Positions 1 through 9,137 of a stretch of 64,000 nt of DNA are shown here, piece after piece. The stretch spans positions 33 to 64,032 of the forward strand of contig JBEBSD010000030.1 in NCBI GenBank assembly GCA_040394475.1. The letters run 5' to 3'. The DNA is from Telluribacter humicola (GTDB taxonomy: Bacteria > Bacteroidota > Bacteroidia > Cytophagales > Spirosomataceae). Each line of letters starts with the position of its first letter. The first letter of the stretch is position 1. The position numbers and the translations under genes were made by a program. Under the pieces are notes generated by a model. The model worked only from the letters and a program-made list of their open reading frames with translations, searched no databases and was not told the DNA's origin.

Positions 1-20
1 TTCGAATCCAAACGGGATCA
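1..20 (+). tRNA. Probable 3' end of a tRNA gene cut by the window edge
   Basis: Window opens with TTCGAAT (canonical T-loop), then CCAAA (5-nt T-stem strand starting CC), CGGGATC (7-nt acceptor strand) and discriminator A. No encoded CCA. Too little is visible to assign an isotype. Confidence 0.4.
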
Positions 21-30
21 CTTGAAAATC

Positions 31-61
31 AGGCACTTAGCAGCAATGTTGAGTGCTTTTT
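31..61 (+). terminator. Possible intrinsic terminator after the tRNA fragment
   Basis: AGGCACT (31-37) pairs with AGTGCTT (52-58, one G-U), 14-nt loop, T-run follows. The loop is long, so this is only moderate. Confidence 0.3.
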
Positions 62-94
62 GCTTCTTTCACAGTACTGAATTACGGGGTCAGC

Positions 95-250
95 CCACCG
101 TGGTCTGTGTCTTCACAGACCATGGTGGATTCCAGCATAAAACGGCTCAAGCGTAAAACTTGTGGAGTACGTTGTATTTTTCCGGCTTCCACCGTGGTCG
201 GTGTCTTCACAGACCATTCGCGACTAAAGCGTAACGCCTGTGGCCCGCGC
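95..250. repeat. Family A hairpin repeat, two tandem copies
   Basis: CCACCGTGGTCTGTG-TCTT-CACAGACCATGGTGG at 95-128 (15-bp arms, one mismatch). A diverged second copy lies at 189-220. The flanks AAGCGTAA..TGTGG are also duplicated. Confidence 0.85.
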
Positions 251-257
251 TGACCCG

Positions 258-305
258 GCAAAAAAGTAACACGGAGGGCACAGAGGTAAAACACAGAGGA
301 AGTCA
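258..305 (-). repeat. Family E element (reverse orientation)
   Basis: Reverse complement reads CCTCTGTGTTTTACCTCTGTGCCCTCCGTGTTACTTTTTTGCC. This matches the core of the 113-bp tandem units at 53387-53722. Confidence 0.75.
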
Positions 306-345
306 CTGAGAAAAATGACTTGAGATTTGGGATCCAGTACAGAGG

Positions 346-564
346 GTGATAAAATTCACGGGTCATGCTCTTGATCAAATGCAATCAAGGGGTAGTATTT
401 CTCCGAGCCTAGTCCTTGATATAATTAAGAATCCTGCAAGAGCGTTGCCTGGGAACACTCCGGGTACATCAGTTTTCATTAGAGACAATATAAAAGTTGT
501 TACAAACAAGGCAGGTGATAACATGACTGTTTTTTCCTATTGGCAAAACGAATTTATACAATGA
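346..564 (+). CDS. Orphan toxin C-terminal fragment, DUF4258-like (putative RNase-type toxin)
   Basis: 72 aa with only a GTG start; the frame opens at 319 with no ATG. The motif F-T-G-H-A-L-D-Q-M-Q-S-R-G-I-S resembles the DUF4258 signature H-A-x-x-R-M-x-x-R-G-I. The stop overlaps the next gene's start as ATGA (561-564). Confidence 0.45.
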   Translation: MIKFTGHALDQMQSRGSISPSLVLDIIKNPARALPGNTPGTSVFIRDNIKVVTNKAGDNMTVFSYWQNEFIQ

Positions 565-983
565 GACTTAAAGGTGATATAGGTAAACTGGAAATAGAAA
601 TCTTGAAGAGAAGCAACTCTGAAACGGAAGATTATTGGGACGCTAATTGGCTTGAATCAGAGATTAGAATAGATGTTCCGGGTTTTAGTGCCTTTTATGG
701 AACGAATCTGAGAGTTGATGACCTAAAAAGCTTTTATGAGAGGCTTACTGCTTTGCAGAACAGTAGTAGAAAAGAAGCAGAATTTGCTACATTGGAAGAA
801 GGCTTATATTTGTACTGTGAATTGGCCCCCAATGGCAGTGTAAATTGTAAAGGAAGCACAAATAATGGTACCGGAAACAGTTTGAACTTTAACCTTCAGA
901 CAGATTTAGCATCCTTAGGTGTTTTTGTAGACGAACTTAGAAAGATTTTAACATCTTATCTATTAATAGGGAATTTAGAATAA
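561..983 (+). CDS. Putative immunity protein, WapI-family-like
   Basis: ATG at 561 overlaps the upstream stop. There is no signal peptide. The segment LEIEILK...DYWDANWLESEIRIDV resembles my recollection of WapI-type immunity proteins (D-A-N-W-L block). Confidence 0.5.
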   Translation: MRLKGDIGKLEIEILKRSNSETEDYWDANWLESEIRIDVPGFSAFYGTNLRVDDLKSFYERLTALQNSSRKEAEFATLEEGLYLYCELAPNGSVNCKGSTNNGTGNSLNFNLQTDLASLGVFVDELRKILTSYLLIGNLE

Positions 984-1141
984 ATAAAAATTGAAGTTAA
1001 TGCTTATCAGGTACAATATTCTTATGATGACTTCTATCCAGCCGGCGCAAATTCCTTAAAGGATATAAATGAACAAACATTAATGAATATTAAAACTTCA
1101 AATGGTAGATCTGTTTATGGAAATTTAAAAGATATAAAGAA

Positions 1142-1852
1142 ATGATAAGCATGTTATTGACGTTAATAGCAGCAATTAATTTAATTTGCTGCATGCCTAC
1201 GAAAGGTCAAAAAGCTAAAGAAATATCAGGTATATATGAACAACAGGAAAGTTCGGAGAAATTGGAGTTAAAACCTGATGGGGCCTATACATTAATTAAT
1301 GCTGAAGTTTTATTTACTCCGGTCATAGAACAATGCGAATACGCATCCAAAGGGAAGTGGTCTCTAATGGCCGATAATGTGCTTTGTATTACAAGTGAAA
1401 ATTACTATTTAGAGGAAAAAGGATATGAGTATGAAATGGAAAAACAGCATAAATTTTCTTCAGATAGTTTGTATATACGAGTAGTATTTCCTACCGATTT
1501 TCATCCTGTTAAATTGAATTTTTCATTTAATCATAACAATAGCAAATCAATAACAACAGATAGTACTTATATCGTACTCGCTAAATCAAATTATTTATGG
1601 AATAGAAGAGCCGGGACTAACCATATTAGTTTTGACATGAATGCTTATGTGTCGGGAACTACACTTTATAAAAGTAGAATAATGTTTGAGATTTTTAATG
1701 AGTATGTAGACACTGAAAAGTACAATTTTCTTACCATTTATTTACCGAATTTTGATAGATGTTTTTTTGAATTCGAACCATATAATCAAGAGTTCATATA
1801 TATTAAAGGTAATAATCAGTTACTATGGAAAGGGGAAGTATGGCATAAATAG
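1142..1852 (+). CDS. Lipoprotein of unknown function, candidate periplasmic immunity protein
   Basis: 236 aa. The N-terminus MISMLLTLIAAINLICC has a lipobox-like L-I-C-C. A+T-rich. The start overlaps (ATGA, 1142-1145) the stop of a start-less 53-codon frame at 984-1145. Confidence 0.45.
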   Translation: MISMLLTLIAAINLICCMPTKGQKAKEISGIYEQQESSEKLELKPDGAYTLINAEVLFTPVIEQCEYASKGKWSLMADNVLCITSENYYLEEKGYEYEMEKQHKFSSDSLYIRVVFPTDFHPVKLNFSFNHNNSKSITTDSTYIVLAKSNYLWNRRAGTNHISFDMNAYVSGTTLYKSRIMFEIFNEYVDTEKYNFLTIYLPNFDRCFFEFEPYNQEFIYIKGNNQLLWKGEVWHK

Positions 1853-1924
1853 TTAATCGGATAGCCAAGCTAAGAGTGCAAATGTATTTTTATTGCTCGG
1901 GTCCTTTTTGGAAGGTGGGGAGTC

Positions 1925-2683
1925 GTGGATCCGATGGCGGAGATTTATGAAGACATAACCCCCTATAATTATGTCTTTTCTAATCCAATCCTTTGGACAG
2001 ATCCAGATGGGAGATGTCCAACTTGCCCGCAGGGAGATGAAGCTGCATCTACTTATAAGCCCGGAGCGATTGTAACCAATCAATACGGCTCTTGGACTTG
2101 GACGGGTTCAGAATGGCAGGATAATTTACCATCATCAGTGCCTGCCGGTTCTCAGGTTATGACGCCTGTTTCAGGCGCTTTGGGCTGGTTGGATCAGTTT
2201 TGGAGTGGAAACCGTAGTTATGTAGATGGTAGGCAGGTTAGTAGTTCAGGTGAGCTATTGAACACTTACACATCTAGAACGGGAACCCCGCCAGATTTGG
2301 GTATTGGAAAAGTTGGGTCTACTATTAAAATAGGGATTAGTCTAAAAAAACTTTTAGGGACTTATAGTTGGTCAAGCAGTCGAATAGCTCAAGCAGCCAA
2401 ACAACTCAATAGTGGTAGTAAAACAGTAAAAGTGGCAACTCGGGCGGAAGCGGAAGAGCTTTTCTTGGGTTTATTTCAAGGAAAAGGTTTTCGTAATACA
2501 ACTGGAATGTCAGCAAAAGAAGCCAAAGATTTTTTTGGAAAGGCCGGTACTTACCATTGGGATGATGTAACTGACGCTGCTGGTAGATTAGTAAATCATT
2601 CTGCATCCAATTCGCATGGAGCAATGAAACATTTGCAAATTCACGATGAAAGTGGTAAAATAATTAGAATCTTTTTTGAGTAG
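1925..2683 (+). CDS. Orphan RHS-core tip fused to an unclassified C-terminal toxin domain
   Basis: The frame is open from 1874 (..ARVLFGRWGVVDPMAE..) with no ATG before the homology. It contains SPYNY-type TPYNYVFSNPILWTDPDG, the RHS/YD core terminal motif. The variable C-terminus carries GTYHWDD and HLQIH motifs. Confidence 0.7.
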   Translation: MDPMAEIYEDITPYNYVFSNPILWTDPDGRCPTCPQGDEAASTYKPGAIVTNQYGSWTWTGSEWQDNLPSSVPAGSQVMTPVSGALGWLDQFWSGNRSYVDGRQVSSSGELLNTYTSRTGTPPDLGIGKVGSTIKIGISLKKLLGTYSWSSSRIAQAAKQLNSGSKTVKVATRAEAEELFLGLFQGKGFRNTTGMSAKEAKDFFGKAGTYHWDDVTDAAGRLVNHSASNSHGAMKHLQIHDESGKIIRIFFE

Positions 2684-2691
2684 TGATAATA

Positions 2692-3036
2692 ATGGAAGAT
2701 TTTAACAAAAGCGTGTGGAATAGGCTGTATTACCAAGGGGAGTATATTGCTGCCGAGTTACCATCCTCACAAGAAAATTATAGACGTTGGGTTGCCATTT
2801 ATAAAAGCAAGCCTGAGCATCCACTGTCACCTTGGGAGGAATCAGTATACAAATATTCTGTGCTAGATTTTGAACTTGACAGTAACTTAGTAGATGAGTA
2901 CTTTTCTGAGGAAGATAAACTAAATCAAAGAATATTTTATGCCGACTCCGAGGTTACTTTGTTGGATATTCTACATAAACAAAACATAGCACCTTCTTTA
3001 TTTACCTATCCATGGAAGTGTGATTATCCTTTATAA
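2692..3036 (+). CDS. Putative cytoplasmic immunity protein for the preceding toxin
   Basis: 114 aa from the ATG at 2692 (track ORF 2683-3036). It lies immediately downstream of the toxin stop (2681-2683), has no signal peptide, and is followed by a strong terminator. Confidence 0.5.
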   Translation: MEDFNKSVWNRLYYQGEYIAAELPSSQENYRRWVAIYKSKPEHPLSPWEESVYKYSVLDFELDSNLVDEYFSEEDKLNQRIFYADSEVTLLDILHKQNIAPSLFTYPWKCDYPL

Positions 3037-3040
3037 AACA

Positions 3041-3065
3041 AATCCCCGGCACGCCGGGGATTTTG
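3041..3065 (+). terminator. Intrinsic terminator
   Basis: AATCCCCGG-CACG-CCGGGGATT followed by TTTTGC, starting 5 nt after the stop at 3034-3036. Confidence 0.75.
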
Positions 3066-3151
3066 CTTCGCACTTTATAGAGTTCTCTAACGACGTCAGC
3101 GGCTCTAGTGTAACCGGGAATGAGGGATCTGCCGACCCTAAAAGTTCTGTG

Positions 3152-3448
3152 ATGACTATTAAGTTCAGCGACGTTTCGAAAACACTCGGTAGTGGGGAAA
3201 AGGCCAACCTGGAAAGCACTATGGCTCATGAGTTATCTCATCAATATGATAGGGAAACTGGAAAAAGAAACAGGAACGTACCAATTAATGATAAACATAC
3301 GGAGAGAGACCCTAATGAAATTAGAGCCGTTAATGTTGAAAACAGATATCGTGTCAATAATAATATGGAAATGAGAACAAATTATAGCGGAAGAATATAC
3401 CCAAATAGTTTTAAAAAACCAAAGCGGAGAAAAGATGAAGACGGCTAA
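3152..3448 (+). CDS. Putative HExxH metallopeptidase-type toxin fragment
   Basis: The track ORF is 3020-3448, but its first codons lie across the terminator hairpin; the first in-frame ATG is at 3152. It has MAHELSHQYD (HExxH, 3227-3241) and a downstream DPNEIRAVNVENRYR block. No RHS tip is present. Confidence 0.4.
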   Translation: MTIKFSDVSKTLGSGEKANLESTMAHELSHQYDRETGKRNRNVPINDKHTERDPNEIRAVNVENRYRVNNNMEMRTNYSGRIYPNSFKKPKRRKDEDG

Positions 3449-3929
3449 ATACTTATATATTCTCTTCCTAATATTCATGAATAGTTGCGATAGAAAAAAA
3501 GAATGCGTAACGAGCGAGTCTTTTAACCCTAGGTCACCAGCGTATATAAGTTTAGAGACTTCTCAAGGGAAAAAATATTGTATTGGTTACAACGAACTTT
3601 TAAAAGTTACACCTTCTGATGTCATGAATGGTCAACTCGGAATGAAAAAAAGAATAGATATTTATTGTGGCAGTATCAAGCTAGACAGCTCAGATATAAC
3701 CAAGATACTGAATGATATAAATGGTGTCGTGTACGAGATATCAGCCATTCCAGATAGTATAAATTTGAAACTAATGACTGAAATAGCATTGGATTCAAGC
3801 GGTATATTTAAGATTAGGGATTTTGATTATAACTTACGAGGCAACATAATTGATGCAGCCATTGGGAAAGGTTATATTGTTTATTTTGATGACCACGAAG
3901 GGGAATATTTTTGGGAAAGAAAAAATTAA
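3435..3929 (+). CDS. Lipoprotein, candidate periplasmic immunity protein
   Basis: 164 aa. The signal peptide MKTAKYLYILFLIFMNSC has a lipobox Cys. It overlaps the upstream ORF's end by 14 nt. Confidence 0.45.
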   Translation: MKTAKYLYILFLIFMNSCDRKKECVTSESFNPRSPAYISLETSQGKKYCIGYNELLKVTPSDVMNGQLGMKKRIDIYCGSIKLDSSDITKILNDINGVVYEISAIPDSINLKLMTEIALDSSGIFKIRDFDYNLRGNIIDAAIGKGYIVYFDDHEGEYFWERKN

Positions 3930-3997
3930 AATAGTGGCATCATAAGCAAAATTACTATCCTTTCGGGCTCAGTATCCCCAGGAGTGGGACGGATGCG

Positions 3998-4735
3998 GTG
4001 AATAGGTACCAGTTCCTGAATAGGGAAAAGCAGCCCGAGACAGGGTACATGGATCTGATGCTGCGTTTTTACGATCCGAGTATCGGGAGGTTTATGCAGG
4101 TCGATCCGGTGACGGAGACGCAAGAGAATTATTCCACCTACCAATATGGATGGAATAACCCGATCTTACAGAGTGATCCGAATGGAGATTGTCCCTCATG
4201 TCCGCAAGGCGAGGAAGCTGAAAAAGTTTATGCAGTTGGGGCGCAGGTGACCAATAAAGATGGATCTTGGACTTGGACTGGTAAAGAATGGCAGACCAAT
4301 ACGGTTAACGGCGAAGCACAAAATGCCAGTACGGTGGCATTGCCCTTAACTCTGTCACTACCATTAGCTGGATTAGGGGAAAAGGTGACAGAGATTTCCT
4401 TGAACGGATTGAAAGCCATTGCCACTGTGCCATTAATGACGCTGGCATTTGTACTCACACCAACCACGGCAAATGCGCCCGCACCAGTATTTGGCGACAA
4501 CCGTACGTATTATACACCACCTCCTCAAACTCTCCCTGGATTTCCCGGCGCAAAGAAGGTACCAAGAAGAGGCAGGGCTCGTTGGGTAACCCCTGATGGC
4601 GATATCTTGGAATGGGACTCTCAACACGGCGAAGTTGAAGTTTATAACAAGCGTGGAAAACATAAAGGAGTAGCTGATCCCAATACCGGGGAGATGCTAA
4701 AAGATCCCGTTCCTGGTAGGACAACCGAAAATTAA
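3998..4735 (+). CDS. Orphan RHS-core tip fused to a colicin E3-like cytotoxic rRNase domain
   Basis: The frame is open from 3935 (..NYYPFGLSIPG..NRYQFLNREKQPETGYMDLMLRFYDPSIGRFMQVDP..YQYGWNNPILQSDPNG), a typical RHS repeat-associated core end. The C-terminus RARWVTPDGDILEWDSQHGEVEVYNKRGKHKGVADPNTGEMLKDPVPGR aligns with the colicin E3 segment KRKRWTGDKGRKIYEWDSQHGELEGY..GSFDPKTGNQLKGPDP. Confidence 0.8.
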   Translation: MNRYQFLNREKQPETGYMDLMLRFYDPSIGRFMQVDPVTETQENYSTYQYGWNNPILQSDPNGDCPSCPQGEEAEKVYAVGAQVTNKDGSWTWTGKEWQTNTVNGEAQNASTVALPLTLSLPLAGLGEKVTEISLNGLKAIATVPLMTLAFVLTPTTANAPAPVFGDNRTYYTPPPQTLPGFPGAKKVPRRGRARWVTPDGDILEWDSQHGEVEVYNKRGKHKGVADPNTGEMLKDPVPGRTTEN

Positions 4736-4756
4736 TGATTCTAAGAAAGAGAAGAC

Positions 4757-5005
4757 ATGGAGATAACAAGACTAATTAGTGTATACGATAAGCAGACGCA
4801 AGAATTATTGAAGGAATACAATATTGATTTCATCAAATTTGATACTTTGAAGAAAATGTTTAATCCTCCAGACGATGATCCGTTAATGTATAATTTTTAT
4901 TGGGTTGAAGAATCCCAGCTTGAAGAGATGAAGCAATTAGTTGATGTCAATTTTGACTTAACTAAGTACATATACCAATTGGAATGCTTCCAGGCAAACA
5001 CTTAA
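4757..5005 (+). CDS. Putative immunity protein for the E3-like RNase
   Basis: 82 aa, acidic, no signal peptide, 21 nt downstream of the toxin stop and followed by a terminator. It is not similar to the ImmE3 sequence as I recall it. Confidence 0.5.
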   Translation: MEITRLISVYDKQTQELLKEYNIDFIKFDTLKKMFNPPDDDPLMYNFYWVEESQLEEMKQLVDVNFDLTKYIYQLECFQANT

Positions 5006-5025
5006 AAATGATTGCTTTAAACATA

Positions 5026-5053
5026 AAAAGCCCCATTCCACCCGGGCTTTTTA
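5026..5053 (+). terminator. Intrinsic terminator closing the toxin island
   Basis: AAAAGCCC (5026-5033) pairs with GGGCTTTT (5044-5051), 10-nt loop, T-run. Confidence 0.6.
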
Positions 5054-5249
5054 TGTTTACGAGGTTAACGCCTGCTTCCCCTTATGATCTGTCAGCGGCG
5101 AGGAAGTGTCAAAAACAAGAGAACTTATCGCCTCCTCTTATACTGAGCGTTCGTGCGGGCACATGATAATGAATGAGATTGCGTCAAAATACATGAGAGT
5201 GCTGCTGCGACCGATAATGACAGTCCCGTAGTCTGGTTCACCACATTTA

Positions 5250-5918
5250 TCATTTCAACAGCTCCACTATTTCTTTAAAGCCGCGGGACTGTGCATGCTG
5301 CAGGGGAGTTACGCCGTTGTGGTCGGGAATCGCTAACCGGGCTCCGGCGTCTTTCAAAATCTGTACGATCTGCTGGTATTTTTTGCTGCCGTCACCCAAA
5401 ACAATGGCTTCCATTAAAGCCGTCCAACCCAAGCGGTTGACATGGTCTATCGGATAATTTGGGGTCGTTGCCAGTAACCTGACGGTTTCTACATGTCCGC
5501 GTTCGCAAGCCGGTATCAGCGCCGATCCGTTGTACCGGTTAAAAATATCAAAACGCGCCCCGTTGTTCAGAAACAGTTGTACCAGTTCCGTTTGTCCGCT
5601 CGCACCGGCATATAGAAAAGGGCTATCCTGGTTGTCGGCTTGCAGATTGACATCTGCTCCGTGCTTTACCAGTAATTTTGCCATATCGGTTTGCCGGTTG
5701 TTGACCGCAATCAATAATAAGGAGCGTTTACGGTTATCTGTAGTATTGACATCCGCTCCGTTTCCCAGCGCCTTTGCGACTTCTTGTAGATTGTTTTTCC
5801 TGACTAAACTTAAAATGTCATGATCTTTCATTACTTCAGTTTGCGTAGCTTCTCTTGTCCTTGCATGACAGGAGGTGGTTGATAAGATAAGTGTCAGTAA
5901 AAAAACGGCGGTTTTCAT
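5250..5918 (-). CDS. Ankyrin-repeat lipoprotein
   Basis: 222 aa. Signal/lipobox LILSTTSC. Repeated ankyrin signatures (G-A-D-V-N, LLxxGA, TPLxxA). Confidence 0.85.
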   Translation of the reverse strand: MKTAVFLLTLILSTTSCHARTREATQTEVMKDHDILSLVRKNNLQEVAKALGNGADVNTTDNRKRSLLLIAVNNRQTDMAKLLVKHGADVNLQADNQDSPFLYAGASGQTELVQLFLNNGARFDIFNRYNGSALIPACERGHVETVRLLATTPNYPIDHVNRLGWTALMEAIVLGDGSKKYQQIVQILKDAGARLAIPDHNGVTPLQHAQSRGFKEIVELLK

Positions 5919-6062
5919 GGTCAGTCGATTTTAACGTACAATATCCCTCAGGCACATCAGTGATGTAACGGGAGCGAAACCGCCTCGGCAGCATTCCGGA
6001 TTCTGTAGCGTAACCGGCACATCCAACCTCCGTCAGTTGCCCCTCATGGAAAATCACCAGGG

Positions 6063-8477
6063 TTAGCGCAGCGATACCAGCGTTACGCCTGCTCCGCCGC
6101 GATCGGGATGTTCGTCGGTCAGGCCGGTTACCTGTTTATAGGAGCGCAGATGGTTCCGCACCAGACTCCTTAAGATGCCGTCGCCTTTGCCATGTACTAC
6201 CCGCAGCTCTTCGTAGCCCAGGATGAGTGCGTTGTTCAGGAACTGGTCCAGCGCTACCATGGCTTCTTCCCCGCGCTTGCCCCGGATGTCGAGGTTGAAG
6301 CTGAACTGCTGCATCTTCTCGTTCAGGTCGATGTTACTGCTGCCGGACAGCGAACGGGTCTTTTTGGTGGTGGTGGCGGTTTTGTAGATTTTTCCCGAAA
6401 CCCTTTCCAGGCGGTTCAGTTTGATGAACGATTTTAACGCTCCCATCCGGATCTCGGCTTCTTTCTCTTTCAGTGAAATGACTTCCCCGACGGTTGTCTG
6501 CCCCTTGATCCGGACATAGCTGCCAACGGCGATAGCGCCTTCTTCGGGCTCAAAAATTTCATCCTGCTCCGGGAGCGTTTCGACTACCTCCGGAACGAGC
6601 TCTTTTTGAACGAACGTTTCGAGTTGTGTCCGGACGGTTTTGGTAGCCGTTTTTTCCGCCTTTTGCTCCTTTATCTCCCGGATCGTATTTTCTATCAGCT
6701 GGTTGGCAGTGGCGACCAGTTCCCGAGCCTGCTGTTTTGCCTGGTTGCGAAGCCGTTTTTCGTTGTTTTCCAGTGTTGTTTTCAAGGCGGTGAACTCGGC
6801 GAGCTGTTGTGCCAGCTTACGCTCCTTAATACCGATTTCCAGGTTTTTTTCGGCAAAGACCCTGCGTTCGATATCGAGTTCTTTCAGGAGCTTTTCAAAA
6901 TTAACCTGTTGTACGCCCAGTTTTTGCTGCGCCCGCCCGATAACGCCTTTTGGCAAGCCTATTTTAGACGCAATTTCAAAGGCAAATGAGCTGCCGGGTT
7001 TACCGGTTTCGAGCGTATACAGGGGCTCCAGGTGCTCGCCGTCGAAACGCATGGCGCCGTTGACCAGCCCTTCTGTTTTATCGGCAAACAGCTTCAGGTT
7101 GGTGTAGTGGGTGTTGATGACCCCGAAGGCTCCGGAAGTTGCAAGGTCTTCCAGGATGGCTTCCGCAATAGCGCCGCCCAGGGCCGGTTCTGTGCCGGTA
7201 CCGAATTCATCAATTAAAAAGAGCGTCTGTTTGTCGGAATGCGCCAGCAGCTGCCGCATGTTGGTCAGATGGGAGCTATAGGTGCTCAGATCGTTTTCCA
7301 GCGATTGCTCGTCCCCGATATCGATAAAAATATGACGGAAGAGCCCGATCGTTGACCCCTCTTCCAGCGGGACCAGCAAACCGCACTGGTACATAAACTG
7401 AATGAGGCCCACTGTTTTGAGGGCCACGGACTTTCCGCCGGCGTTGGGTCCGGAGATAAGCAGGATCCGCTGCCGGGAGTTCAGCGCGATCTCCAACGGC
7501 ACGACCTGCTTCCCCAGTTTTTGAAAAGCAAGCAAGAGGATCGGGTGCCGGGCGTTTCGCCAGTCGAGGAGCGGGCGGTTTTCAAAATGAGGGTTGACCG
7601 CATTCATTTGCATGGCGAGCCGCGCTTTGGCCCGGAGGAAGTCCATCAGGCCCAGGTACTGACAGGCTTTGTGCAGTTCCGGCAAGTGCGGGCGAAGGGT
7701 GTCGGTCAGGGCGATGAGAATGCGGTTAATCTCCCGGCGCTCTTCGTATTCCAGTTCCCTGATGGCATTATTGGCCTCAAACACTTCTGTAGGTTCGATG
7801 AAAACCGTTTGTCCGGTAGCAGACTCGTCGTGTATAAAGCCCTTCAGCCGGCGTTTGTATTCTGCGGCTACCGGGATGACCATGCGTCCGTTCCGTACGG
7901 TCAGCGAGACGTCGTCGCCTACCCAGCCGCTGGATTTGGCGGTACGAAGCATGGTGTCCAGTTTTTTACGGACATTCGACTGTTCGGCGATAAGCTTTCT
8001 CCGGATCGTGACCAGCTCCGGAGAGGCATTGTCGCGTACCTTTCCCCGGTCGTCGATCACCCGTTCAATGGCATCGGTTACAGAGCGGTCCACTACGATC
8101 AGCGCCGCATATTCCTGCAAAAGGGGAAAGGCCTCCGGTTCCTGCGCGCTGAAAAAACGGAGGCATAGCCGTACCGTATTCAGGGAAGCTTTGATGTCGA
8201 AAAAGGCTTCTTCTGTCAACAGTATCCCCTCGATCCTTGCGCTTTCAAGAGACGTGGTAATATCAATATAATTCTGGGAGGGAAAATCGGCTGACTGTTC
8301 CAGGATACGCTTCATTTCGGCGGTTTGCCTGACCAGTTTATCGACCAGTACATACCGGTCGGAGAAGCGTATTTTTTCCACAAACGCACGGCCCATCGGA
8401 CTGATACAGGCTTCTTTCAGCAATTCACGTATCCGGTCGAAACCTAATTTCTGTTCTAGATTCTGGGGGTAGAGCAT
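6063..8477 (-). CDS. mutS2: Endonuclease MutS2 (MutS domain V ATPase plus C-terminal Smr)
   Basis: 804 aa. Walker A GPNAGGKS, FLIDEFGTGTEP, C-terminal Smr block LDIRGKRGEEA...VVHGKGDGILR. Confidence 0.95.
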   Translation of the reverse strand: MLYPQNLEQKLGFDRIRELLKEACISPMGRAFVEKIRFSDRYVLVDKLVRQTAEMKRILEQSADFPSQNYIDITTSLESARIEGILLTEEAFFDIKASLNTVRLCLRFFSAQEPEAFPLLQEYAALIVVDRSVTDAIERVIDDRGKVRDNASPELVTIRRKLIAEQSNVRKKLDTMLRTAKSSGWVGDDVSLTVRNGRMVIPVAAEYKRRLKGFIHDESATGQTVFIEPTEVFEANNAIRELEYEERREINRILIALTDTLRPHLPELHKACQYLGLMDFLRAKARLAMQMNAVNPHFENRPLLDWRNARHPILLLAFQKLGKQVVPLEIALNSRQRILLISGPNAGGKSVALKTVGLIQFMYQCGLLVPLEEGSTIGLFRHIFIDIGDEQSLENDLSTYSSHLTNMRQLLAHSDKQTLFLIDEFGTGTEPALGGAIAEAILEDLATSGAFGVINTHYTNLKLFADKTEGLVNGAMRFDGEHLEPLYTLETGKPGSSFAFEIASKIGLPKGVIGRAQQKLGVQQVNFEKLLKELDIERRVFAEKNLEIGIKERKLAQQLAEFTALKTTLENNEKRLRNQAKQQARELVATANQLIENTIREIKEQKAEKTATKTVRTQLETFVQKELVPEVVETLPEQDEIFEPEEGAIAVGSYVRIKGQTTVGEVISLKEKEAEIRMGALKSFIKLNRLERVSGKIYKTATTTKKTRSLSGSSNIDLNEKMQQFSFNLDIRGKRGEEAMVALDQFLNNALILGYEELRVVHGKGDGILRSLVRNHLRSYKQVTGLTDEHPDRGGAGVTLVSLR

Positions 8478-8618
8478 TCCTGCGGACTAAAATGGATAAT
8501 TGACGATAACACCGGACCGGTACCGGGGTGCGTGTTATGCGTTGGTTGTACTAAAAAGCGGCTGCTCTCCGGTCGGGAAACATAACCGGGGACAAATTTA
8601 CGGAATAAGCGGCTCGGT

Positions 8619-9137
8619 TCAGAAAATTGTTTGAATTTCTGTTTTCAGCGTTTTCAGCGCGTGGGCGGTGGATTGCCGGTCCTGAGCCAGCACTTGCTGG
8701 AATATCTGGCGGGAAAGTTCGGTTGCAGTAGCTTCCCGGCCCACCTTTTCTGCCGATTGGTTGATGAGCGATACCACTTCCTGCATGGCATTGTTAACCG
8801 TTTCCCAGGCATCATGGCTGATGTAAAGCTGTTGCGCCAGGTTGTGGTTGTATTCGCTGCGGATTTCATGGAGCAGGAGCTGCTGGAATTCGGAAGCACC
8901 TTCTGCACTGCCGGAAAGCCTGATAATCAGGTTGTTGGGGGTGATGCGTTCCAGGAACAGGCACATCCGTTCATAGGCCTGCAGTCGTAAAGGGGTAATC
9001 AGTTCGGTGTTTTTTATCCGGATATCCCATTGTTGCTTTTCGAAATAACTCCGGGCAATTACCGTGATGGTGAGGTACATCCCGAAAGTTAAAACAGCGA
9101 CGGTAATTAGTACCGTCAGGAGTGAATTTAATTCCAT
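8619..9137 (-). CDS. Hypothetical membrane-anchored protein
   Basis: 172 aa, with a single N-terminal TM (LLTVLITVAVLTFGMYLTITVI). No recognisable catalytic motif. Confidence 0.55.
   Translation of the reverse strand: MELNSLLTVLITVAVLTFGMYLTITVIARSYFEKQQWDIRIKNTELITPLRLQAYERMCLFLERITPNNLIIRLSGSAEGASEFQQLLLHEIRSEYNHNLAQQLYISHDAWETVNNAMQEVVSLINQSAEKVGREATATELSRQIFQQVLAQDRQSTAHALKTLKTEIQTIF

Follow-up and report, generated by a model that had tools for sequence, protein, structure and literature searches.

A C-terminal displacement model was reportedly put forward by Jackson et al. in 2009, and arrays of orphan immunity genes associated with type VI secretion (T6SS) in Vibrio cholerae are said to have been left by sequential effector displacement. 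In the Enterobacteria, orphan rhs-CT/rhsI and cdiA-CT/cdiI modules have been described as 'silent cassettes' (Poole et al., 2011; PMC3150448). The main and orphan rhs sequences of Salmonella Typhimurium LT2, which are adjacent, in direct orientation and share 522 bp at 95% identity, have been shown to recombine (Koskiniemi et al., 2014; PMC3967940), and Salmonella orphan Rhs toxins have been found to be internally expressed, acting as type II toxin-antitoxin (TA) modules (Starsta et al., 2020; PMC7043789). Here we describe an array of orphan modules in Telluribacter humicola, located at positions 319-5005 of a window of 64,000 nt (C30:33-64032, where C30 is contig JBEBSD010000030.1 of a 148-contig draft, genome G000; C5, C55 and C109 are other contigs of the same genome). 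The array includes two headless rhs tips, tip1 (frame 1874-2683) and tip2 (frame 3935-4735), which were compared with the main rhs gene of the genome (C5:43774-40502) and with related loci elsewhere.

The kind of feature is a known one, the orphan Rhs-CT/immunity module (PMC3150448), and what is new is its host and its detached location beside tRNA genes. As in the Enterobacteria, the orphans start within the core, carry a PxxxxDPxG-type junction, lack translation initiation signals and combine a variable toxin with a small downstream gene, the pairs standing in tandem. Unlike the enterobacterial orphans, whose usual (if not strictly defining) place is downstream of a full-length rhs, the array described here and the main rhs lie on different contigs, and the array follows tRNA-Pro and tRNA-Arg genes, not an rhs. 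The host also differs, being a member of the Cytophagales (Bacteroidota), and its full-length Rhs is a Sec-signal, DUF6443-type protein of ~1090 aa that is not linked to T6SS PAAR/VgrG. To our knowledge, no delivery route has been characterised for this DUF6443-type, Sec-signal Rhs family of Cytophagales.

We read the locus, with a probability of about 0.7, as a detached array of orphan polymorphic-toxin modules, made up of toxin-gene 3' tails and their cognate immunity genes and kept mainly for immunity, in which tip2 would be re-usable and the other toxin pieces relics. New rhs-CT/immunity modules would enter or leave rhs genes via crossovers in the conserved core end, and displaced or captured tips would remain as headless copies. 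What keeps the array in the genome is probably, for the most part, its immunity genes, as these would shield the cell from toxins of neighbours; the remoteness of the array from any rhs favours immunity retention as the reason for its persistence.

Anatomy of the orphan tips

The two tips and the elements immediately associated with tip2 are listed here by window position.

1874-2683, + strand: tip1, a start-less frame of 269 codons with half of an Rhs core end, a Cys-pair linker and a toxin domain without known family
3885-3913, + strand: Bacteroidota-type promoter-like motif, TTTG-N17-TATTTTTG, ending 22 nt before the tip2 frame
3935-4735, + strand: tip2, a start-less orphan rhs-CT frame of 266 codons, with TAG 3932-3934 directly before it
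3953-4186, + strand: complete Rhs-associated core with RFYDPSIGRFMQVDP and NNPILQSDPNGD (TIGR03696, Rhs_assc_core)
3986-4026, + strand: 41-nt block identical to the main rhs, containing GTG 3998 (GGGACGGATGCGGTGAATAGGTACCAGTTCCTGAATAGGGA)
4517-4726, + strand: predicted colicin E3-type 16S rRNase domain (PF09000, E=4.8e-20, profile positions 2-79 of 80)
4757-5005, + strand: DUF7683 gene, candidate immunity gene of tip2 (PF24731, E=2.1e-22, profile positions 2-73 of 73)

The tip2 frame begins WHHKQNYYPFGLSIPRSGTDAVNRYQFLNREKQ..RFYDPSIGRFMQVDP.. (longer reading WHHKQNYYPFGLSIPRSGTDAVNRYQFLNREKQPETGYMDLMLRFYDPSIGRFMQVDP). The initial annotation of this stretch held that the frame opens right after a TAG, has no ATG and reaches a GTG at 3998 only inside the conserved region, and both the sequence and its TIGR03696 alignment bear this out, with the correction that the motif reported as SIPG reads SIPR. 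Residues 7-84 of tip2 align with positions 1-75 of the 76-position TIGR03696 profile (NCBIfam; E=2.9e-16), and the stretch is also matched by PDB chains of Rhs, teneurin and TcC. The first possible start codon (ATG, GTG or TTG) is GTG 3998 and the first ATG lies at 4049, so that 15 core codons (3953-3997) precede any possible start. The core keeps both protease motifs, and its DPxG-type junction motif is NNPILQSDPNGD. Upstream, the preceding lipoprotein-like gene stops at TAA 3927-3929, and the homology break falls at ~3951, in the non-coding spacer. From base composition, we estimate that a random frame in DNA of 32-40% GC meets a stop about every 15 codons, and a stop codon next to the homology break is therefore unremarkable in an island of this composition; the telling point is where the break itself falls, in the spacer that follows the lipoprotein-like gene.

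The second cassette had been described as behaving in the same way. The tip1 frame does open at 1874, after TAA 1871-1873, with a GTG at 1925, but only the second half of the core is homologous: residues 13-46 align with TIGR03696 positions 43-75 of 76 (GRWGVVDP..NPILWTDPDGR) with E=1e-5, which is below the curated cut-off. The junction motif of tip1 is SNPILWTDPDGR, and its toxin domain recurs, with a fuller core, in protein P0013. On these alignments, tip1 and tip2 both appear to be Rhs toxin C-terminal tips severed within, or at the start of, the core-end domain, which would account for homology that starts right after the upstream stop with no start codon before it.

After the DPxG junction both tips carry a Cys-pair linker (CPxCPQGxEA...GSWTWTGxEWQ), at 2000-2119 in tip1 and 4175-4294 in tip2, the two being 71% (121 nt) and 79% (57 nt) identical. 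The same linker is found in proteins P0004 and P0013, and a variant, GDCPSCPKDKAYDIYRDS, in the full-length Rhs protein P0103.

The toxin of tip2 is predicted to be a colicin E3-type rRNase. Its C-terminal 70 residues align with colicin E3/pyocin S6 (PF09000; PDB 1E44, 1JCH) and keep the DSQHGE(L/V)E motif, EWDSQHGEVE of tip2 aligning with EWDSQHGELE of the colicin E3 catalytic domain (1E44_B); the D, H and E retained in this alignment correspond to the Asp, His and Glu that we take to be the catalytic residues of E3-type motifs. Any delivery of the tip2 toxin, unlike that of colicin E3, would rely on an Rhs shell and not on colicin translocation domains, and the partner of the toxin is a DUF7683 gene and not a member of the E3 immunity family. 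The pairing of E3-type toxin and DUF7683 recurs in the related locus L016, where the DUF7683 partners diverge far more than the toxins (window 4757-5005 against L016:7633-7881): the partners share ~35% amino-acid identity (tblastx), with a proportion of nonsynonymous differences (pN) of 0.44 over the full alignment, and the toxins 68%. Having a full core, an intact E3-type rRNase domain and a candidate immunity gene, tip2 is a complete and potentially re-usable module, and the E3-type rRNase/DUF7683 pair would offer a convenient handle on the DUF6443-type Rhs family of Cytophagales.

Public gene calls start such frames at an internal GTG or ATG (245 or 228 aa), and P0003, the public call of tip2 itself, starts at ATG 4049. 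The interest of the locus is mainly one of annotation, as internal-start gene calls hide the nature of these proteins as headless Rhs tips.

Similarity to the resident rhs gene and to related loci

Silent modules of the kind first proposed for this stretch call for a full-length rhs in the same genome, and one is present. The sole intact rhs, C5:43774-40502, encodes a protein of 1091 aa with a signal peptide, DUF6443, RHS repeats, a core and Tox-URI2, and is followed by two small open reading frames (ORFs). The only other RHS-repeat locus, C55:36981-40545, is frameshifted, spreads over three frames and ends in NNPLVYTDPDGN; a second full-length rhs was rejected on these grounds and by a tblastn search with the main Rhs, which found no other copy. 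No RHS_repeat match occurs on the window contig C30. Judged by eye, the neighbours of the C55 gene are a HipA-like gene and a small helix-turn-helix (HTH)-like gene. Near the main rhs, 2.9 kb downstream of its stop and in the same orientation, a segment of 472 nt (C5:37165-37636) with unique flanks is 100% identical to nt 1652-2123 of the gene; the main locus has thus either duplicated an internal part very recently or kept the scar of a rearrangement.

Comparison with the main rhs yielded 72% nucleotide identity over 215 nt for tip2 (blastn), with a longest exact run of 41 nt, and no blastn match for tip1. As in LT2, a headless tip shares its core with the main gene, and a crossover could place the orphan toxin on a delivery shell; unlike in LT2, the shared sequence is short and diverged, with a single perfect block of 41 nt, and the loci are unlinked. 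In relatives, the identity between an orphan and its linked main gene is 98% over 201 nt (G018) and 85% over 544 nt (L016). At the identity levels seen here, tip2 would be a poor substrate for Salmonella-type recombination and tip1 none, and the Salmonella-type adjacent-repeat event is inapplicable because the array follows tRNA-Pro/tRNA-Arg. Orphan arrays can thus lie away from any rhs, where the adjacent-repeat model fails. Tip1 and two other toxin pieces of the array, the DUF4258-like and HExxH fragments, would not be re-installable by homologous recombination, since they have either half a core without nucleotide match or no core.

Over 32 codons (YYPFG...ETGY), tip2 and the main rhs are identical in protein, and all 17 nucleotide differences between them are synonymous, including those in codons upstream of GTG 3998. 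Relative to the L016 orphan, the ratio of nonsynonymous to synonymous rates (dN/dS) of tip2 is ~0.06 in the core and 0.16 in the C-terminal toxin part, with dS ~1.5. The purely synonymous divergence and the low dN/dS indicate that for most of their history these sequences were translated within longer proteins, and they are not old pseudogenes.

On both sides of the 41-nt block nearly every codon for an identical amino acid differs, mostly at the third position, the comparison being saturated. Under genome codon usage, with saturated codon choice, a run of 13 identical codons has P=4.6e-5; with the higher baseline conservation of the block (~83-85%), we arrive by our own arithmetic at P ~1e-3. 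Outside the block the main rhs is the most distant sequence from tip2, matching it at 58 of 100 positions in 4090-4189 versus 81-91 of 100 for relatives, and informative sites change from main-like to G016/L016-like between 4021 and 4054. A longest-run permutation test on the informative sites gave p=0.06, which is marginal alone, and the argument for a mosaic is made by the left/right contrast in site types and not by the run test. With moderate confidence, we interpret the block as a recent short gene-conversion or crossover tract between unlinked loci. No other stretch would realistically serve as a substrate for joining tip2 to the shell of the resident Rhs, and the block hints at continuing exchange between unlinked tips and the expressed gene.

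An assembly chimera or graph artefact at the block was considered and rejected, as the contig overlaps point to an assembly k of ~55, larger than 41. A role of the block as a family-wide recombination site was also rejected, as among 401 family genomes just one other contains its 33-nt core (<=3 mismatches). When 185,579 species genomes were searched with codon degeneracy allowed, four loci encoding the block peptide came up, a number too small for a test of synonymous constraint. Within the block, and hence in the main rhs too, positions 3993-4001 form a two-codon mini-ORF (ATG CGG TGA) whose stop overlaps GTG 3998 (GGTGA); a part for it in termination-reinitiation is pure speculation.

An exhaustive search of 1.84 billion representatives identified P0103, a 1073-aa Rhs with 54% identity to the resident Rhs over 979 aa, whose end consists of a tip2-type linker and an E3 domain (42% identity over 308 aa). 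A related metagenome-assembled genome (MAG) likewise has a tip2-type core that forms part of a frame no shorter than 1038 aa (L020). To judge by these proteins, tip2 appears exchangeable with full-length rhs at the family level. The tip2 homologue that comes closest, P0004 (68% identity), is also an orphan paired with a DUF7683 gene. A DUF6443-Rhs gene lies ~2.5 kb upstream of it, and the locus is syntenic with that on C5, the flanks of the two being 82% identical. Upstream of its core, the rhs part of the P0004 orphan carries a frameshift, while the toxin is intact. The G018 orphan frame also lacks a start codon and begins '*ANSQSRSAKNKYLYLTRELQ..'. Relatives contain many frames of 300-600 aa that include the core, and of the 150 top-ranking representative proteins at least 20 start within it.

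Two further observations were made among these relatives. Just beyond the orphan of a 1092-aa Rhs orthologue in G018 lies a gene for a small serine recombinase (L014:4277-4843) with a Hin-like N-terminus, MNQIFGYARVSTADQ. P0007, a JGI metagenome protein of 245 aa, has a DUF6443 N-terminus directly joined to an E3-type linker and toxin, without the Rhs shell, as if it had arisen from a P0103-like gene by deletion.

Expression, retention and alternative explanations

The modules had been described as promoter-less. The Bacteroidota promoter consensus is TTG-N17-21-TAnnTTTG, and with it only two well-formed motifs were identified in the array, at 784-812 and 3885-3913, against 0.3 expected; for one to fall by chance in the 60 nt upstream of a given position, P=0.004. 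A scan for sigma-70 promoters was uninformative (14 sites, 13 expected). The absence of promoters is therefore doubtful, given the promoter-like motif near tip2 and the fact that immunity genes need transcription to be useful. The motif at 3885-3913 fits transcription of the immunity gene and says nothing on translation of the toxin, whose silence, like that of the other toxin frames, we assume.

The proposal made in the initial annotation, that these are silent modules awaiting recombination into a full-length gene, stands in part. Consistent with it are the start-less rhs 3' pieces with their partner genes, the full-length rhs in the genome, the occurrence of the tip2-type toxin on a full-length Rhs (P0103) and of a tip2-type core in the long L020 frame, and the shared 41-nt block, whereas the position of the array after tRNAs, the low identity of tip2 to the main gene and the lack of usable homology in tip1 and the core-less pieces do not fit it. 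Several points also weigh against our own reading of a detached array kept mainly for immunity. The immunity function of the partner genes is deduced from position and family names. With the array unlinked to the main rhs and matching it at 72% over 215 nt, re-installation of a tip may never happen, and crossing-over of two loci that are not linked would lead to inversion or loss of parts of the chromosome. The promoter-like motif and the in-frame GTG and ATG leave room for independent expression. The 41-nt stretch is also partly conserved synonymously in four related sequences (33-36 of 41 positions), and the significance of the block depends on the null model.

The last of these points bears on one alternative, a pure relic or immunity island in which all toxin pieces, tip2 included, are decaying and the 41-nt identity reflects chance or local constraint. 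Such an island would account for the truncation of three of the five toxin pieces, the loss of half the core from tip1, the completeness of the partner genes against their profiles, the lack of linkage and low nucleotide identity to the main rhs, and the fair conservation of the block region in relatives. The combination of intact immunity genes with truncated effector remnants also resembles the arrays that are said to occur in V. cholerae, from which the locus differs in that two toxin tails are still complete. We nevertheless consider pure decay somewhat unlikely, because tip1 and tip2 maintain uninterrupted frames of 269 and 266 codons in AT-rich DNA, tip2 keeps its catalytic motif and a complete core, its CT type is carried by full-length Rhs proteins elsewhere, and agreement at 41 of 41 positions is improbable for a sequence that is elsewhere the most distant one. 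The same block could instead be a fresh tract in a store of silent tips that trade sequence with the one expressed rhs through non-reciprocal gene conversion over short tracts, much as Neisseria pilS and pilE do, and without chromosome rearrangement, the partly conserved 'GATGCG...AAT...TACCAGTTCCTG' core stretch being a preferred crossover zone. If true, cassettes lying anywhere in the genome could let a Bacteroidota cell replace its Rhs toxin or make a mosaic of it; we give this idea an outside chance. A dedicated recombinase acting on the block as its site, in an integron- or shufflon-like cassette system, is suggested by the serine recombinase gene next to the G018 orphan and by the identity of the block in the main rhs and tip2. 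It is very improbable, as inspection by eye, with no domain scan behind it, brought up nothing recombinase-like among the ORFs of window positions 1-9000 or of C109, copies of the block do not flank the cassettes (blastn and repeat searches found no bounding repeats of any kind), and the 33-nt core of the block is so rare in the family.

Independent expression would turn the cassettes into TA-like modules, in which a promoter of their own drives a shell-less toxin, started at GTG 3998, ATG 4049 or a non-canonical codon, that acts inside the producer. The promoter-like motif 22 nt before the tip2 frame, the two in-frame start codons, the strong purifying selection on the toxin and two public orphan proteins (P0020 and P0149) that begin exactly at the equivalent of 3998 are all compatible with this, and a precedent exists in Salmonella rhs, with internal promoters and a CTG start (PMC7043789); the likeness extends to possible internal starts in the core and an upstream promoter-like motif, while promoter type and position differ. 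However, synonymous-only conservation of amino acids upstream of every possible start (3953-3997) points to a longer protein, the immunity gene would require a promoter anyway, and starts set by gene callers are no evidence of translation, all of which makes TA-like modules distinctly unlikely in our view. Least credible is an assembly artefact, whereby a full-length rhs upstream was lost at a contig break and the cassettes are ordinary linked orphans. The window does start 32 nt from the contig end, and draft assemblies break at repeats, but the contig end lies inside a tRNA gene that C109 completes: the start of C30 overlaps the start of C109 by 37 nt, and the joined sequence contains tRNA-Pro(TGG) followed by a complete tRNA-Arg(TCT) (ARAGORN). 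Upstream of the tRNAs, C109 carries housekeeping-type ORFs and no RHS motifs (translations read by eye), and the tblastn search with the main Rhs gave no further copies.

Layout and flanks of the array

All genes of the array are on the + strand and form four or five pairs of toxin fragment and immunity gene. The order is DUF4258-like fragment and WapI-like gene, 53-codon remnant and lipoprotein gene, tip1 and small ORF, hairpin, HExxH fragment and lipoprotein gene, tip2 and DUF7683 gene, and inverted repeat. The features other than the tips are as follows.

1-21, + strand: 3' end of tRNA-Arg(TCT), left island boundary (ARAGORN on the joined C30/C109 sequence)
95-140 (95-123) and 189-234 (189-217), no strand: palindromic repeats of 29-46 nt (CCACCGTGGTCTGTGTCTTCACAGACCATGG; blastn matches)
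244-326, no strand: repeat of ~80 nt (blastn; direct-repeat family D2)
319-564, + strand: DUF4258-like toxin fragment, a start-less stop-to-stop frame with no Rhs core (PF14076, E=4.4e-4, below cut-off)
561-983, + strand: WapI-like candidate immunity gene (PF24716, E=1.6e-22, profile positions 6-137 of 138)
984-1852, + strand: start-less 53-codon remnant (984-1145) and 236-aa lipoprotein-like partner (1142-1852), no family match
2692-3036, + strand: ORF, candidate immunity gene of tip1, no family match
2990-3448, + strand: HExxH metallopeptidase-toxin fragment with no Rhs core (weak Tox-MPTase2/peptidase matches, all below cut-off)
3040-3063: hairpin after the tip1 partner
3435-3929, + strand: ORF, lipoprotein-like candidate immunity gene of the HExxH fragment, no family match
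5018-5059, no strand: perfect 16-nt inverted repeat, terminator-like, at the right edge of the array (repeat I3)

The ATG of the WapI-like gene overlaps the TGA of the DUF4258-like fragment (ATGA). GC content is 32-40% in the array versus about 50-56% outside. A blastn and repeat search found no duplicate of the tRNA 3' end that could represent an attachment repeat. On the 3' side, an ankyrin-repeat gene and then mutS2 follow the array on the opposite strand, with core-genome composition. The two repeat types at the left edge are not confined to this locus: the ~29-nt palindromic element is scattered over dozens of contigs, in several cases at their ends, and the ~80-nt element forms tandem runs on contigs C3, C10, C17 and C20.

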